From positions 2,114-31,450 of the forward strand of contig CAZWVL010000011.1 in assembly GCA_964637115.1 (NCBI GenBank): 29,337 nucleotides of DNA, given 5' to 3'. The stretch is from an uncultured Methanosarcinales archaeon (GTDB taxonomy: Archaea > Nanobdellota > Nanobdellia > Woesearchaeales > ARS49). Positions within the stretch are counted from its first letter, which is position 1; every line of letters starts with the position of its first letter. Shown piece by piece: positions 6,099-18,885 of the stretch. A model generated the notes under the pieces. That model saw only the letters and a program-made list of their open reading frames with translations. It was not told where the DNA came from and ran no database searches. The position numbers were made by a program, and so were the translations under genes.

Positions 6099-7292
6099 AT
6101 GCTAGTCGGAATTGTAGGAAAGGCCAACGTTGGAAAAAGCACGTTCTTCAAAGCAGCGACACTCGCAGAGGCGCTGATTGCAAACTATCCCTTTGCGACG
6201 ATAAAGCCAAACAGGGCATTTGCATTCATCAAAATAGATTGTGTAGACAAGGAATTGGGAGTGCAGTGCAATCCAAAGTATGGATACTGCGTAAAGAACA
6301 AAAGATTTGTGCCAATAGAAGTATTAGATGTTGCTGGCCTGGTGCCAGGAGCACACGAAGGAAAAGGAATGGGCAACCAGTTCTTGGATGACTTGAGGCA
6401 GGCGGACGTATTTATTCATGTTGTAGATATGGCAGGAACAACCAACCAAAGAGGGGAGCCTGTCGAACCAGGCAGTTACGACCCTGCATTTGACATCAGA
6501 TTTCTTGAAGTAGAACTGGACATGTGGATACTTGGCATCATACACAGAGGCTGGGACAGGTTTGCACGCGTAGTCCAACAGGAAAAGGCGAAATTGTCAA
6601 CCGCGATGGCGAAGCAATTATCTGGATTAAACGTCACTGAAGCAATTGTTCAAGAAGCGATGGGAAAACTTGGCCTCGACCCAGAAAAACCGGCAGCGTG
6701 GACTGACCAAAACCTGCTTGACATCGCAAAGCACATCAGAAAAAGAACAAAACCGATGCTGGTTGTTGCAAATAAAATGGACCTGCCGACAGCGCAGGCG
6801 AATTTAGAAAGATGCCAAAAAGAATTCCCGGACTATACTATCATTCCCTGCTCGGGCGATTCTGAACTTGCACTAAAAGAAGCAGCAAAAGCAGGATTAA
6901 TCAGCTACATTCCAGGAGAATCAAGTTTTGAAATGAGCGACAAACTTAATGATAACCAAAAAAAAGCACTTATGTTCATAAAACAGAACGTACTTGACAA
7001 ATATGGAAGCACGGGAGTGCAAAAAGCACTTGACATAGCCGTGCTTGAACTACTGAAGTACATCGCAATATTCCCCGGAGGAGTTGGAAAGTTAGGAGAT
7101 AGCCAAGGAAGAATACTGCCAGACTGCTTCTTACTCCCACCTGGAAGCACAGCACTCGGCTTTGCAGCACACATTCACACAGACTTGGCAAAGAATTTTG
7201 TAGCGGCAATTGATGTCAAGAGCAAAAGAAAAATTGCCAAAGACACGCCGCTCAAAAACAGGGATGTTATCGAGATAATGGTCTCAAAATAG
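6099..7292 (+). CDS. ychF: YchF/Ola1 family translation-associated NTPase, archaeal type
   Basis: 'GKANVGKST', 'NYPFATI.PN', 'DVAGLVPGAHEGKGMGNQFL', 'NKMD', C-terminal TGS domain ('LPPGSTA..FA..IHTD'). Confidence 0.93.
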   Translation: MLVGIVGKANVGKSTFFKAATLAEALIANYPFATIKPNRAFAFIKIDCVDKELGVQCNPKYGYCVKNKRFVPIEVLDVAGLVPGAHEGKGMGNQFLDDLRQADVFIHVVDMAGTTNQRGEPVEPGSYDPAFDIRFLEVELDMWILGIIHRGWDRFARVVQQEKAKLSTAMAKQLSGLNVTEAIVQEAMGKLGLDPEKPAAWTDQNLLDIAKHIRKRTKPMLVVANKMDLPTAQANLERCQKEFPDYTIIPCSGDSELALKEAAKAGLISYIPGESSFEMSDKLNDNQKKALMFIKQNVLDKYGSTGVQKALDIAVLELLKYIAIFPGGVGKLGDSQGRILPDCFLLPPGSTALGFAAHIHTDLAKNFVAAIDVKSKRKIAKDTPLKNRDVIEIMVSK

Positions 7293-7956
7293 GCTCAATA
7301 ACGATCATACTTCTGCCAAACTTTTTGCTGGGAATCCAAGCTTTCCTGAAATGCTCATATGAAATGACATGCTCCATTCCCCAAGGATCACAGATAAAAA
7401 AACCCTGCTTATTGAAACCACGTACAAGAATCATATGAGTACCGATTTCTTTTGAATGATAAAATCTGCCGGCAAGCACTTCAGCAATAACAGGAATGCT
7501 CCTCTGCACATACCTCTTGATAAGTTCGATAGAAGCATTGCGGCGGTGCGCATATTTCCCCGTCTTCAAGGCTTTGCGTTCGTGCTCGGCATACAATTTT
7601 GCAAGGTCTGCAGTCCAAACACCCCAGTCTTCCAGCTCTCCGTTCCAAAAAGTTGTGACCTTGAAGCCCCTCTTGATTAAAGGCATTGCGATGCAAGCAT
7701 CACAAAGCCCTTCATATTTTTTACTTAACTGCGCCTTACGATAAAACTTCACCTCATCAATAGGGTCACCATAATAGTGCAATACCATTCTAACGCACGC
7801 GGCAAGACACGTCACAGGCAGACGCTGATGAAAACACTCAACCGGAAGAAGATATTCGCGCTTTAACACACTTCTTCCACGCTCAGTCTTTGACCAGGCG
7901 TGAAATTCGCCATATATTTCGTGCGGATGCAGAGGACATTCTTTCGATCTACGCAT
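7267..7956 (-). CDS. Peptidase C39-like (papain-fold) cysteine peptidase
   Basis: 'HQRLPVTCLAACVRMVLHYYG' (Q...C), 'GTHMILVRG' (H), 'ICDPWG' (D). Start uncertain: ATG 7956 (GAGGCG upstream) or GTG 7869. Tail-to-tail overlap with ychF. Confidence 0.8.
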   Translation of the reverse strand: MRRSKECPLHPHEIYGEFHAWSKTERGRSVLKREYLLPVECFHQRLPVTCLAACVRMVLHYYGDPIDEVKFYRKAQLSKKYEGLCDACIAMPLIKRGFKVTTFWNGELEDWGVWTADLAKLYAEHERKALKTGKYAHRRNASIELIKRYVQRSIPVIAEVLAGRFYHSKEIGTHMILVRGFNKQGFFICDPWGMEHVISYEHFRKAWIPSKKFGRSMIVIEPILRPLSR

Positions 7957-7984
7957 CGAGAATCGCCTCTTTAAACTGTGCATA

Positions 7985-8096
7985 TGCGATTCGCAAGAAA
8001 ATTCCCTGCATTTTCTGCGCCCAGAAAAGCAAAGCTTTTCTCGGGCTCGGGCCTAGAAAATCGCCCAATATCTTTGTTTTATTTGGCGATTTTCTA
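7985..8096. other. Cluster of intergenic hairpins between the GGDEF gene stop and the C39 gene
   Basis: 8054-8065/8085-8096 perfect 12-bp stem (TAGAAAATCGCC/GGCGATTTTCTA); GCCCAGAAAAGC-AAA-GCTTTTCTCGGGC at about 8019-8046; competing TTTTCTG/CAGAAAA at 8011-8028; TGCG-ATT-CGCA at 7985-7995. Confidence 0.7.
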
Positions 8097-9419
8097 CGCA
8101 TCTAATACACCTAAGTGTTTGTCAACAATAAGGAAAGCTATAACTTTGTTCTTGCCAAGGTGCTTTGCACGGTACAAGGCACGGTCAGCTTCTTTGATGA
8201 GAGTCTCTCTTGAGACAGAACTGTTCATGCAAGTAATTAGGCCGATGCTGATTGTAAGTTCACAGTTTTTCTCAACTTCAGAACGAAGTTTTTCAGCAAC
8301 TTCCTTTGCATTTTGCTGCGAATAATTTGGCAGGACCATCATAAATTCCTCGCCGCCATAACGGCAGCACATAGAGCCCTTAGGCGCAACATTCTTGATA
8401 ATTTCAGCAATAATCTTCAGAATACGGTCACCTTCAGGATGACCTTTTGTGTCATTAAAGTTCTTGAAATTGTCAACATCAAGCATTGCCAGGCTTATGG
8501 GCGAGTTTTTTGAGGAGAGATCAGAAATCAGCGAGTCAACTCTCTTGGCAAGTTCGGAACGATTGTTCAAGCCAGTCAAAGAATCAGTAACGGCAGATTC
8601 CTGCACCTTCTCAAACTGAGAAAGACGAGAAAGAACAGCAGCCAGTTCATAGAGCACTTCTGACACGCCGTCCAACGAAAACAGCTGTTCAGCAGTGCAA
8701 ACAGCGTAACCAATCATTTCTCTATTAAGAGTCAGAGGAAAGCCAACAGTGCATTTTGGAAGTTTGTCACGGTCCTTAATACCCTCCAGCAAGAAATCAG
8801 ACTGAACATTCTGAATAGTACAGGTTGTTTTAGTGCCTTTCACTTGAGCGATGACACGCTGCTCAACAGCTGCGCCAACCTCTGATACGTCAAAATTACG
8901 CGCTTTTTTGTTGTAAGCATACAATAGAACATTGCTAAGCTTGAACTTGTGCGACAAAAACTGGACAGAAGTGTACAAGGCCTTGTCAATATCCTGCACA
9001 TGCGCAATTGATTGAGAAAATTCCAGCAGAAGTTTAGCACGAGACAAAGATTCCTTTAGAATGGCTTCTGAGCGGCCGGCAGCAGCAGCCTGCCTGACTG
9101 TAATTTCTATCCAATCTGCAAATTCATCCTTCCACATTGGAAGTTTTTGCCTAGCGTCAGAAAGCTCCTCATCAAAAGCGTGCGTTTCATCAGTCTTGAA
9201 CGGACCAACAATAATCTGGCCGCTATCAATTAACACTGCAACATATTTGATTCCAGGAACAATGGAATAAGGAGCATCATTCTTACGATTGCGCAGCTCT
9301 TGGAAGAAAGACATTTTGCCAAACACCGCCTGCTCGCAAATGACAGGAGCCTTCAGCCGGGCAGACAAAGACTCTGCCAGCTCACGCCACACCTCTGTCT
9401 TGACAAATGCTGGAAGCAT
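8094..9419 (-). CDS. Sensor (PocR-like?)-GAF-GGDEF diguanylate cyclase
   Basis: 'TDSLTGLNNR', 'LDVDNFKNFNDTKGHPEGD', 'RYGGEEF' (8343-8357), 'TISIG', 'ADRALYRAKHLGKNKV'. The middle region is GAF-like ('GFPLTLNREMIGY'); the N-terminal domain call is tentative. Confidence 0.93.
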   Translation of the reverse strand: MLPAFVKTEVWRELAESLSARLKAPVICEQAVFGKMSFFQELRNRKNDAPYSIVPGIKYVAVLIDSGQIIVGPFKTDETHAFDEELSDARQKLPMWKDEFADWIEITVRQAAAAGRSEAILKESLSRAKLLLEFSQSIAHVQDIDKALYTSVQFLSHKFKLSNVLLYAYNKKARNFDVSEVGAAVEQRVIAQVKGTKTTCTIQNVQSDFLLEGIKDRDKLPKCTVGFPLTLNREMIGYAVCTAEQLFSLDGVSEVLYELAAVLSRLSQFEKVQESAVTDSLTGLNNRSELAKRVDSLISDLSSKNSPISLAMLDVDNFKNFNDTKGHPEGDRILKIIAEIIKNVAPKGSMCCRYGGEEFMMVLPNYSQQNAKEVAEKLRSEVEKNCELTISIGLITCMNSSVSRETLIKEADRALYRAKHLGKNKVIAFLIVDKHLGVLDA

Positions 9420-9444: not shown

Positions 9445-10182
9445 TTAAAGTTTCCTGTTGGAATGACCAGAATAGGAAACATTCTCGTCATCTTCACGAC
9501 GATAAACAGCACCAGACATACGCTCCTCAATAACGTGAGCAGCAATGCCTGCAGTTCTTGGAATTATGAAGAAAGCGCGGGCAGACTGCCAAGGAAAGCC
9601 AAGGTCTGAGATAATGGCTGCAATCGCGCCATCAATGTTAAGATGCAACACTTTCTTTGTTTGCGCACAGAGTTCTTCATCAAGTTGCTTTGCGAACTTG
9701 ACGTGCTTTCCAGCAAGCTTGTGTTTTTCGGCAAGCGCGAATAAAGGAACAACTCTCGGATCTTGATCGTAATGCTTATGACCATAGCCAGGCACGCGCT
9801 CTTTTCTGGAGACCATACTTTTTACCAGTTCTGCTGCAGATTTTCCTGCATTGTCTTGGAATAATCGGGCAGCCTGTTCAACAGCACCGCCATGATAGTC
9901 GCCAATGGCAAGAGTGCCGGCTGCAACAGCAGCGTTGATTGGGTTGCCAGCACTTTGAACTATTCTAGCAGCTGTTATAGATGGCACTTGAATACCGTGT
10001 TCTGCAGCGCTCACGAAAATAGCGTCAAGAAGTTCACGCTCGCCCTTTTTTGGCAAATCTCCCTTGATAAGCAGGCAAATCATATCAGTAAAAGTGATCT
10101 TGCCTACCAATGCAGAAACATCATAGCCGCGCACACTAGCACCTTTCTCAGAAACCTTTGAAATCTTTGTATCCCATTTCAT
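9445..10182 (-). CDS. ccl: Citryl-CoA lyase (citrate synthase fold)
   Basis: 245 aa; 'EHG..VPS', 'HGGA', 'PGYGHK', 'DPR', 'LNIDG', 'PRTAG..AH..EE'; much shorter than citrate synthase; translationally coupled to the alpha subunit. Confidence 0.88.
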   Translation of the reverse strand: MKWDTKISKVSEKGASVRGYDVSALVGKITFTDMICLLIKGDLPKKGERELLDAIFVSAAEHGIQVPSITAARIVQSAGNPINAAVAAGTLAIGDYHGGAVEQAARLFQDNAGKSAAELVKSMVSRKERVPGYGHKHYDQDPRVVPLFALAEKHKLAGKHVKFAKQLDEELCAQTKKVLHLNIDGAIAAIISDLGFPWQSARAFFIIPRTAGIAAHVIEERMSGAVYRREDDENVSYSGHSNRKL

Positions 10183-11075
10183 AATGCATCCCTTATTACA
10201 TTGCCCAGTTCGTGATGATATTCAGCTATTATAGCACCGGCCTTGCGCAATTTCTCGATTTTGTCAGACGGCCTGCCCTTGCCGCGCTCAATAATCGCGC
10301 CAGCATGACCGAACTGAATTCCAGCGGGCAGGTTCTCGGCAAACTTGCCTCCGATAAACACTGCAATCGGCTTAGTGAACTCCTTATTTTTTAATACTTC
10401 CGCAATCTCATCTTCATACGTGCCACCTAACTCACCAAAAGCCACAACAGCTTTTGTCTCCTTGTCTTTTTCGAACAATCTCAGCAAGTCTGCATATGTT
10501 GAGCCTATCAACATTTCTCCACCCATGCCGATAACTGTGCTCTGGCCAAGTCCTGCTTGCCGAATAACCCAAGCAGTCTCATTAGTCATACCACCGCTTT
10601 TGGAAATAATGCCAACAGAACCTTTCTTGTAAATACGCTCAACCATATCAGGTATGCCGCCGATTGGACCGATACGCGAAAGTTCAGGACTTATCATGCC
10701 AACAGCAGCAGGGCCGATTAGAACAGCTTTCTTTTCTCTTGCTTTAGCAATCATTTCAGCAGCGTCGTGCAAGGGAACGTTTTCCGTGAATACAAGCACC
10801 AGAGGAATGTCGTTATCGAGAGCCTCGAAAACAGCGGATTTTACAAATAACGGCGGGACAACCACAAACGACGCATTAATGTCGTGCTGAGATTTTGCCT
10901 CTTTGACAGAATTGAAAACGGGAATACCATGCACTTCCTGACCGCCTTTGCCCGGAGTAACGCCAGCAGGAACTTTCGTGCCATACTGCACCATAAGCTC
11001 AGCAGCACGGGAACCCTCAGTGCCCGTAATGCCCTGAATCAATGCTTTTGTGTTTTTATCAAGCAGGATTGCCAT
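10179..11075 (-). CDS. Citryl-CoA synthetase / ATP-citrate lyase alpha-type subunit (CoA-binding, phospho-His)
   Basis: 'QGITG', 'GPAAVG' (ACL-like GPATVG rather than SCS GPNCPG), 'SKSGGMTNE' (ACL SRSGGMSNE), 'QFGHAGA' phosphohistidine loop. Confidence 0.88.
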   Translation of the reverse strand: MAILLDKNTKALIQGITGTEGSRAAELMVQYGTKVPAGVTPGKGGQEVHGIPVFNSVKEAKSQHDINASFVVVPPLFVKSAVFEALDNDIPLVLVFTENVPLHDAAEMIAKAREKKAVLIGPAAVGMISPELSRIGPIGGIPDMVERIYKKGSVGIISKSGGMTNETAWVIRQAGLGQSTVIGMGGEMLIGSTYADLLRLFEKDKETKAVVAFGELGGTYEDEIAEVLKNKEFTKPIAVFIGGKFAENLPAGIQFGHAGAIIERGKGRPSDKIEKLRKAGAIIAEYHHELGNVIRDAL

Positions 11076-12210
11076 ATTTTTTCATCTTCTCCACAATAAT
11101 TTTCGCAGTAGCGGTCAAAGGCGTCTCAGCACCATGCATTTCAATATCCCAGCCGTGCTTTTTTGCGGCATCCATCAGGATAGCCTTGCCTTCTTTTTCA
11201 TACTGGCCAGAACGCCTAACGACAATTGGAAATTTAGGATTGACTTCTTCAAAAGCCCTAACAATACCAGCCATCATGGTATCAACACGCGAAAAGTTTG
11301 CAATAGCGCCAACAATCCAACAGCCCCTAATGCCCGGTTTTGTAATAGCCTGCTTCGTCAACACATACATTTTCTCATCTGTTGGATTGCCTCCAAATTC
11401 TGTGTAATTTGCCGGCTTTCCCCCTGCGTCAATCAAAGCATCCATGCAAGTAATGCTTCCACCGCCTCCAGCGGCTAGAAAAGCGACATCACCATCAAGT
11501 TCGAGATACTTCACAGTGCCCTTGTAATCAGCATCGTTAGCTGCTTTGACCAACTTCTCACGCTCGGTCAACGGGCGGCCGATGCTTGAAGGGCGTTCGC
11601 TATATGCCCAGTCCTTATGACGCCCTAATGCAAAATCATCAAGCTCGATGTGAGCGTCAAGACAGACAAAGCCGGATTTGGTCTCTGCCACAGGATTAAT
11701 TTCAAGCAGTTTGCAGTCCTCTTTAACAAAGACATTCCAGAGCGAGACGAGTAATGGAGCAAGCGCCTTGTGCTCTTTGAGAAACGAGGCAGCCTGAGCT
11801 TCAGAAAGACCGGCGAGTTCGTTTATGACCAGTTTTTGTACTTCTTTCTGCTCTTCAATTCCGGTGCCGCCATGAAGGCTGAATAACAGAACTGGAGAAC
11901 GGGAATTAGTATCAAAAAAGAAGCTGGCGTAGTACTGTTTTTGCATTTCTATTAGGTCTTCAACCAATACGCTTTTGACTTCCTCGCCCTTCATCGATTT
12001 ACCGAGAAGGCTTACAATGGCGTTTTCGGCCTGCTTCTTGTCCTTGCAAATTTTGATGCCGCCAAGATCTGCACGCTTGCCGAACAAAACTTGGGCCTTG
12101 ACAACACAGGGAGCAGATACTTCCTGCTTTACTGACAGCAGAACGCCTTTTGGCACTACAATACCGTGCTTCTGCAACAGCGCTTTTGCCTCGTATTCGT
12201 ATAACCGCAT
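11059..12210 (-). CDS. Citryl-CoA synthetase / ATP-citrate lyase beta-type subunit (ATP-grasp plus citrate-binding domain)
   Basis: 'MRLYEYEAK', 'VVKAQV..GKR...GG', 'LEINP', 'AGGGGS', 'NYTEFGGNP', 'GAIANFSRVD', 'IVVRRSG'; start at ATG 12210. Confidence 0.9.
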   Translation of the reverse strand: MRLYEYEAKALLQKHGIVVPKGVLLSVKQEVSAPCVVKAQVLFGKRADLGGIKICKDKKQAENAIVSLLGKSMKGEEVKSVLVEDLIEMQKQYYASFFFDTNSRSPVLLFSLHGGTGIEEQKEVQKLVINELAGLSEAQAASFLKEHKALAPLLVSLWNVFVKEDCKLLEINPVAETKSGFVCLDAHIELDDFALGRHKDWAYSERPSSIGRPLTEREKLVKAANDADYKGTVKYLELDGDVAFLAAGGGGSITCMDALIDAGGKPANYTEFGGNPTDEKMYVLTKQAITKPGIRGCWIVGAIANFSRVDTMMAGIVRAFEEVNPKFPIVVRRSGQYEKEGKAILMDAAKKHGWDIEMHGAETPLTATAKIIVEKMKKYGNPA

Positions 12211-12232
12211 GACTAACTGGCAAACAGCATTA

Positions 12233-12241
12233 TTTTTAAAT
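12233..12241. promoter_or_regulatory. Single TATA element equidistant from two divergent start codons
   Basis: TTTTTAAAT centred about 27 nt from ATG 12210 (minus) and about 26 nt from ATG 12263 (plus). Confidence 0.55.
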
Positions 12242-12249
12242 CTCACTAT

Positions 12250-18705: not shown

Positions 18706-18727
18706 CCCCACCCTTTGTCGTCAATAA

Positions 18728-18837
18728 TGGACGGCCATAGGGGTCGGGTTCCACCTGGTCTCATTCGAACCCAGCAGTTAAACCGGCCTCCGTAACGGTG
18801 TGTACTCCGCTGAGGGGGAAATCCGTCAAGCTGTCCA
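18728..18837 (+). rRNA. rrf: 5S ribosomal RNA (stand-alone, about 110 nt)
   Basis: Helix I TGGACGG/CTGTCCA; conserved 'GGCCATAG', 'CGAAC', 'AGTTAA', 'GTACT...GGGAAA' blocks. Confidence 0.9.
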
Positions 18838-18885
18838 CCTTATATTCTCCTTAAATTTAAATAAAGAGCCAAAGTAACTAACCTC

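Follow-up and report, generated by a model that had tools for sequence, protein, structure and literature searches.

Why would an archaeon with a very small genome keep three genes whose products resemble tricarboxylic acid (TCA) cycle components, and what would they do there? The question is raised by a stretch of 29,337 nucleotides (nt) from contig CAZWVL010000011.1 of assembly GCA_964637115.1, hereafter the window, in which positions 9445-12210 carry genes for the beta and alpha subunits of an acyl-CoA synthetase and for a protein related to citrate synthase. Judged by family membership, the trio is confirmed as a split citryl-CoA synthetase (CCS) and citryl-CoA lyase (CCL) of the Hydrogenobacter type. 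We propose, with a probability of roughly 0.7, that its two enzymes would together cleave citrate at the expense of ATP, and that the trio would serve as an accessory cassette through which scavenged citrate enters a very small acetyl-CoA/oxaloacetate node. The features are as follows.

11059..12210, minus strand: predicted citryl-CoA synthetase large subunit (beta, CcsA-like), 383 amino acids (aa), with an ATP-grasp domain and a citrate-binding domain of the ATP-citrate lyase (ACL) type
10179..11075, minus strand: predicted citryl-CoA synthetase small subunit (alpha, CcsB-like), 298 aa, with a CoA-binding domain and a phosphohistidine loop (His257 in QFGHAGA)
9445..10182, minus strand: predicted citryl-CoA lyase (Ccl-like), 245 aa, with the C-terminal citrate-synthase fold and without the N-terminal part; putative catalytic residues His97, His135 and Asp184
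12230..12240, minus strand: A/T-rich box TTTAAAAATAA, centred ~25 nt upstream of the beta ATG, as read from the sequence

According to the listing of open reading frames (ORFs) of the window, the three genes are co-directional on the minus strand; the beta stop and the alpha start overlap by 17 nt, and the alpha stop and the lyase start by 4 nt (ATGA). Since the reading frames overlap, beta-alpha-ccl is probably translated as a coupled operon. The ATG at 12210 was taken as the beta start rather than the GTG at 12246, because the latter would read through the A/T-rich box and because homologues start with M-x-LYE. The box is a candidate archaeal TATA box, from which a leaderless or short-leader operon transcript may originate.

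All three proteins match CcsA, CcsB and Ccl of Hydrogenobacter, either as best match or by shared insertions and deletions and active-site motifs. In the Pfam search, the beta subunit matches ATP-grasp_2 (PF08442, 112 bits) and Citrate_bind (PF16114, 81 bits for a cut-off of 26.8), with no match to Ligase_CoA (PF00549). PF16114 appears specific: 14 control genomes were searched, each containing SucC, and none matched. Against the NCBIfam SucC model, beta scores 213, below the cut-off of 370. Among solved structures in the PDB, the best match is CcsA (6hxq_B, 190 bits), followed by an ACL subunit (154) and the succinyl-CoA synthetase (SCS) of Thermus (152). ANFS (aa 304-307) is aligned to 'ianft' in an ACL beta subunit (6hxj_A) and to 'anntr' in Hydrogenobacter CcsA (6hxq_B), and VRRSG (aa 331-335) to 'vrrgg' and 'vrrng', respectively; the Thermus SCS has 'fggitr' and 'vmrvag' at these places. 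In other words, the SCS loops FGGI-x-RCD and VRL-x-G(T) are replaced in beta by AN-x-T/S and RR-x-G loops.

Phylogenetic analysis of beta points the same way. The set of 147 relatives consisted of 50%-identity representatives drawn from 1.84 billion proteins, supplemented with named loci and E. coli SucC. With FastTree, beta falls inside a clade of 74 rows (support 95), 70 of which carry AN[FN][TS] and RR; a Nitrospirales ACL subunit belongs to this clade, which excludes the rows with SCS motifs and another two ligase clades. In an IQ-TREE analysis under LG+C20 (44 rows), the rows with CCS/ACL motifs form one group (SH-aLRT 99). Constraining beta to group with SCS-type and IGGxNRMD-type ligases was rejected by the approximately unbiased (AU) test (delta lnL 52, p-AU 0.0034).

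The alpha subunit, which contains the Pfam domains CoA_binding and Ligase_CoA, scores below the cut-offs of both NCBIfam SucD models (301.5 for 353 and 296 for 336). Its motifs GPAAVG (aa 121-126), SKSGGMTNE (aa 158-166) and QFGHAGA (aa 254-260, with His257 as the phosphohistidine) align with 'gptslg', 'sksgglt' and 'sfghaga' of CcsB (6hxq_A), whereas SCS alpha has GPNCPG, SRSGTLTYE and RMGHAGA. Alpha and CcsB 6hxq_A also share a six-residue loop insertion, IGPIGGIPDMVE, the SKSGG(M/L)T motif, a 3-aa insertion and FGHAGA, none of which occurs in SCS alpha. These CCS-type motifs are present in all 99 aligned sequences among the 120 top matches listed (down to 52% identity), and E. coli SucD lacks them.

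The lyase matches the C-terminal citrate-synthase domain of Pfam and passes the cut-offs of two NCBIfam citryl-CoA lyase models (NF004869, 273 for 212; NF004866, 255 for 245). Like the Citrate_bind score of beta, the NF004869 score goes well beyond chance. In the PDB, Ccl (6hxp_A) scores 195 bits, versus at most 74 for any citrate synthase. At the positions of the catalytic His, His and Asp of E. coli GltA, the lyase has His97, His135 and Asp184, which do not vary among 57 members of the family.

These results agree with the original prediction on several points. It had described three overlapping genes at 9445-12210, which the ORF coordinates and both overlaps bear out, and had read them as citryl-CoA synthetase beta and alpha subunits plus a separate lyase, a reading now supported by domains, best solved relatives, the tree and the AU test. 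Its suggestion that ANFS and VRRSG match citrate-binding segments of ACL was confirmed by the alignment to 6hxj_A, and the phylogeny that it proposed as a check places beta in the CCS/ACL clade, apart from the succinyl-type ligases, so that the grouping named as its refutation was not obtained. The alpha motifs that it listed as matching ACLY are indeed present, their match to that enzyme being checked through CcsB as a proxy only.

The metabolic setting of the trio is informative as to its role. The source genome (G000), which is present in freshwater-sediment samples, is 1.27 Mb long, 98.3% complete and carries archaeal markers (eRF1, NFACT and a YGR210-type GTPase), and the closest homologues of the trio are labelled Woesearchaeota or DPANN. 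No other TCA gene was found in the window. At the genome level, no match was obtained for aconitase (PF00330), isocitrate dehydrogenase (IDH; PF00180), POR_N (PF01855) of the pyruvate and 2-oxoglutarate:ferredoxin oxidoreductases (PFOR/OGOR) or the Ldh-type malate dehydrogenase (MDH; PF00056, Ldh_1_N), and controls did match. Since none of these partner enzymes of the reverse TCA (rTCA) cycle was found in a genome of this completeness, a cell-autonomous rTCA cycle is excluded. The original prediction had likewise assumed a reduced archaeon with no further TCA gene in the window and had argued against rTCA carbon fixation, all of which the genome upholds.

Thiolase and AMP-forming acyl-CoA synthetases (ACS) also gave no match in the genome, and positive controls matched. 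Present are the alpha subunit of an ADP-forming acetyl-CoA synthetase (ACD) at C2:142283-143632, with a class I/II aminotransferase two genes away; a malic enzyme; and a 2-oxoacid dehydrogenase operon at C3:112956-118075 (E1 alpha, E1 beta, E2, lipoate-protein ligase and lipoyl synthase), which looks complete as far as these components go. Three hexapeptide acyltransferases, one of them in a sugar cluster of 4,6-dehydratase, DegT and acyltransferase genes, and six acetyltransferases of the GNAT family are encoded as well. Apart from the trio, no consumer of citrate is visible, and acetyl-CoA and oxaloacetate both have sinks.

We infer substrate, direction, citrate source and product fate from this combination of motifs and gene content. 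In the proposed mechanism, beta would bind ATP through its ATP-grasp domain and citrate through its ANFS and RRSG loops; His257 of alpha would be phosphorylated, and citryl phosphate and then citryl-CoA would be formed. Free citryl-CoA would be split by the separate lyase, using His97, His135 and Asp184, into acetyl-CoA and oxaloacetate. The citrate would presumably derive from the host or the environment. Acetyl-CoA could be passed to sugar and protein acetyltransferases, or to ACD, which would return the invested ATP, and oxaloacetate could be turned into aspartate by the aminotransferase or into pyruvate by the malic enzyme. We also infer that citrate fermentation would be stoichiometrically possible with this gene set: citrate would be cleaved to acetyl-CoA and oxaloacetate, oxaloacetate converted to pyruvate by the malic enzyme, and pyruvate to acetyl-CoA by the dehydrogenase complex, so that two acetyl-CoA would yield two acetate and two ATP via ACD, a net gain of one ATP.

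How the trio is distributed bears on whether it is a fixed or an optional part of the metabolism. Within the genus, 8 of 15 genomes, G000 among them, have a match to Citrate_bind (PF16114); none of the 22 other sampled genera of the family has one, and in the class it is found in 14-15 of 351 genomes (~4%). The genus tallies here and below include one unpublished genome, G010, which has ACD, E1 and the aminotransferase and is negative for the trio and POR; without it, the trio is found in 8/14 and POR in 4/14 genomes, and the conclusions are unchanged. The order beta-alpha-ccl is kept in all nine related genomes that bear the trio and, with few exceptions, in 80 loci from DPANN archaea, the candidate phyla radiation (CPR), Chloroflexota and Acidobacteriota. 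At the syntenic site, one congener has epimerase-beta-alpha-ccl-GGDEF, and in the trio-negative genome G012 the epimerase lies directly beside the GGDEF gene; consequently, the three genes are cleanly present or absent as one cassette. Strong purifying selection acts on them, the ratio of non-synonymous to synonymous substitutions (dN/dS) against three congeners being 0.04-0.10 with dS saturated (beta, 0.05-0.06; alpha, 0.08-0.10; lyase, 0.04-0.10). A scan of one genome per species revealed at least 568 relatives, hosted by Woesearchaeota, Aenigmatarchaeota, Micrarchaeota, Nanohaloarchaea, many CPR groups (above all Magasanikbacteria), Chloracidobacterium and Anaerolineae.

ACD and the 2-oxoacid dehydrogenase complex belong to the core of the genus, the latter being found in 14-15 of 15 congeners. 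The trio would therefore be an accessory input into a conserved node leading from acetyl-CoA to acetate and ATP, and no obligate partner was found. As a separate observation, the genes for ACD alpha and the class I/II aminotransferase are convergent within ~2 kb (C2:142283-145476) in G000 and at least eight congeners, a pairing that suggests a conserved module from amino acids or oxo-acids via acyl-CoA to ATP. POR_N and the trio are mutually exclusive within the genus (0/8 trio-positive versus 4/7 trio-negative genomes). The genus itself seems split into two metabolic types, a PFOR type (G002, G004, G008 and G012, with an Ldh/Mdh-type dehydrogenase in G002, G004 and G008) and a citrate-trio type (G000, G001, G003, G005, G006, G009, G011 and G014).

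The gene neighbourhoods add a possible purpose. In the window, the trio adjoins genes for three methyltransferases, a flippase, two epimerases and a uridine diphosphate (UDP)-sugar dehydrogenase. In 30 of the 80 loci, all from CPR, it is preceded by genes for an NTP-transferase, GlmS, a HAD protein, a CofD-like protein and a 111-aa GNAT, and in one Woesearchaeota locus (L023) it follows glmS-glmM-glmU after an 8-nt gap. These neighbourhoods fit a supply of acetyl-CoA for envelope sugars. Hence a more specific version, which we put forward tentatively and rate as rather less probable than not: the trio may be a horizontally mobile cassette of DPANN and CPR that makes acetyl-CoA from scavenged citrate, mainly for N-acetylated envelope sugars in host-dependent cells. 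No proposal of such an envelope-sugar role was found in the literature searched.

Citrate cleavage has to be weighed against the same enzymes working backwards, in which acetyl-CoA and oxaloacetate would be joined to citryl-CoA and released as citrate, ATP being gained by substrate-level phosphorylation. The overall reaction is established to be close to equilibrium, acetyl-CoA would be available from the 2-oxoacid dehydrogenase complex, and oxaloacetate could derive from aspartate through the aminotransferase. Moller et al. are said to have found in 1987 that the ATP-citrate lyase of Desulfobacter postgatei runs in the ATP-forming direction. We nevertheless consider the reverse run unlikely here. 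Citrate would be a dead end, no aconitase or IDH having been found; the universally present ACD gains the same ATP from acetyl-CoA without using oxaloacetate; and the repeated placement of the trio after glmS, glmU or GNAT genes in other lineages fits acetyl-CoA supply and not citrate production. Because the genome lacks a detectable aconitase or other visible citrate sink, cleavage appears better supported than its reversal, as far as gene content can tell. Of the two directions that the original prediction had left side by side, cleavage is thus the favoured one and the ATP-conserving reverse is less supported.

The trio could also cleave a related acid, for instance 2-methylcitrate to propionyl-CoA and oxaloacetate, or another hydroxy-di- or tricarboxylate. 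The citrate-synthase fold includes 2-methylcitrate synthases, which are among the weaker matches, the Thr of ANFT is a Ser in beta, and specificity is not fixed by sequence alone. Against this, the AN[FN][TS] and RR motifs also occur in the characterised CcsA and in an ACL subunit, and the lyase, in addition to passing both citryl-CoA lyase cut-offs, is far nearer to Ccl than to any citrate or methylcitrate synthase. A substrate other than citrate is, in our view, improbable.

That the locus merely encodes an ordinary SucCD next to a truncated citrate synthase is very unlikely, even though source names of the homologues often read 'succinate--CoA ligase' and alpha is overall most similar to an archaeal SCS alpha. 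Both subunits fall below the NCBIfam SucC and SucD cut-offs, beta has Citrate_bind in place of Ligase_CoA, the SCS motifs FGGI.RCD, VRL.GT, GPNCPG and SGTLTYE are all replaced, the AU test rejects a placement with SCS, and no other TCA enzyme was found to use succinyl-CoA. Finally, a citrate-cleaving step of an rTCA cycle that fixes CO2, perhaps jointly with a host, can draw on the role of CCS/CCL in Aquificaceae and on a preprint that speculates on a syntrophically shared rTCA cycle in Nanohaloarchaea, but it is hardly credible for this genome, where aconitase, IDH, 2-oxoacid:ferredoxin oxidoreductases and Ldh-type MDH are without match at 98% completeness, contradicting the cell-autonomous form, and where only half of the genus has the trio.

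Several observations weigh against the cleavage of scavenged citrate or its proposed uses. No citrate transporter of the CitMHS or DASS families was found in the genome, although positive controls matched, other transporter families not having been searched, so that the transporter check proposed with the original prediction came out negative for these two. Alpha is overall nearer to an archaeal SCS alpha (2yv2, 272 bits) than to CcsB (226 bits). The 2-oxoacid dehydrogenase complex rules out the trio as the only source of acetyl-CoA. In the window, no acetyltransferase gene lies beside the trio; the CPR loci with glmS and GNAT genes are close kin, and the genes flanking other DPANN loci are unrelated. 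Outside the genus, POR_N is present in 2/11 trio-positive and 2/20 trio-negative genomes. The idea that the trio replaces PFOR is accordingly not retained: the pattern is confined to the genus, where kin are not independent, and there is no general exclusivity elsewhere. Malic enzyme, found in 2/8 trio-positive versus 0/7 trio-negative genomes of the genus, shows no enrichment elsewhere (4/11 versus 6/20) and was rejected as a fixed oxaloacetate sink.

Other features of the region were recorded as well. A 441-aa protein encoded at 8094-9419 on the minus strand contains an intact GGEEF diguanylate-cyclase domain (135 bits), and its gene starts 25 nt after the lyase stop; no terminator was seen between the two genes, the terminator scan not being informative for an archaeon. 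Of 61 related archaeal genomes, 53 carry GGDEF genes, frequently more than one each (a tally that includes G010 and G023, both unpublished), and the archaeal controls carry none. Cyclase activity has been described for GGDEF proteins of archaea in a 2026 paper (PMC13725321); they are therefore known, if so far little studied. The gene belongs to a conserved backbone, eRF1 ... GTPase - C39 - GGDEF (window 7267-9419; L097-L101), which is also present in congeners without the trio. A module linking citrate, cyclic dinucleotides and the C39 peptidase is consequently unsupported. A lone 5S rRNA gene lies at 18727-18839 on the plus strand (Rfam, 66 bits), between epimerase and 2'-5' RNA-ligase-like genes, with no 16S or 23S gene near it within the window.

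Among the relatives of the trio, one from Anaerolineae (locus L038, 7975-10087) is immediately followed by another, divergent beta/alpha pair, with 35-39% identity; its alpha has the altered motifs SRSNGIVNE and LGHRGV, and the pair may be a paralogous ligase of other specificity. In addition, a 1023-aa representative (P0205) matches beta over residues 4-405 and may be a single-chain fusion resembling ACL.

CCS/CCL, textbook rTCA biochemistry, is found here in isolation, in a cell that depends on a host and has next to no central metabolism. Should scavenged citrate indeed be cleaved, ultra-small archaea and bacteria would be drawing this metabolite from their hosts or surroundings, and this would explain where some of these cells obtain acetyl-CoA and oxaloacetate. 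Public labels for these proteins are mostly succinyl-CoA synthetase and citrate synthase, which falsely suggest a partial TCA cycle or carbon fixation in DPANN and CPR reconstructions.

Neither the kind of enzyme nor its occurrence in DPANN and CPR is new to the literature. A bioRxiv preprint of 2022 (10.1101/2022.10.25.513756) describes CCS/CCL homologues in DPANN and CPR genomes that were mis-annotated as SCS or citrate synthase; such homologues are listed by a DPANN survey for a few metagenome-assembled genomes (PMC8091004), and a study of Woesearchaeota includes aclA/aclB in a gene chart. As far as the accessible portions of the preprint and the survey go, they deal with presence and rTCA evolution, and not with the presence or absence of a cassette at one locus or its placement by envelope-sugar genes.

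Compared with SucCD (E. coli 1jkj, Thermus 3ufx, Aeropyrum 2yv2), the trio shares the superfamily fold and the ATP-grasp, CoA-binding and phosphohistidine chemistry, and alpha is highly similar overall; the acid-binding motifs and two alpha insertions or deletions differ, the C-terminal domain of beta is Citrate_bind and not Ligase_CoA, and tree and AU test separate the two. With AclA/AclB of Chlorobium and Nitrospira and archaeal ACLY-A/B (6hxj, 6hxi), beta has motifs of the ANFT and RRGG type in common, and the Nitrospirales ACL subunit lies in its clade. In ACL, however, the SucD-like and lyase parts are fused into a chain of ~610-630 aa and citryl-CoA is not released, whereas in the trio each part has its own gene, and a stop codon and the 4-nt ATGA overlap lie between the two. 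The trio proteins also score lower against ACL chains than against CCS chains. Identity as a two-subunit AclAB is ruled out, the SucD-like and lyase modules being separate ORFs.

The closest counterpart is the system of H. thermophilus, where CcsA/CcsB (6hxq) and Ccl (6hxp) have the same three-protein layout and domains, the same citrate-site motifs (AN-x-T/S, RR-x-G), alpha insertions and deletions and phosphohistidine loop, and the same His, His and Asp in the lyase; 6hxq_B and 6hxp_A are the best solved relatives of beta and lyase. Identity to these proteins is only moderate in the printed alignments, and the trio proteins are shorter (383, 298 and 245 aa versus 429, 353 and 268 aa for the H. 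thermophilus chains). Unlike H. thermophilus, this 1.27 Mb DPANN host, in which no rTCA partner enzymes were found, carries the three genes as an overlapping, probably coupled and optional cassette.

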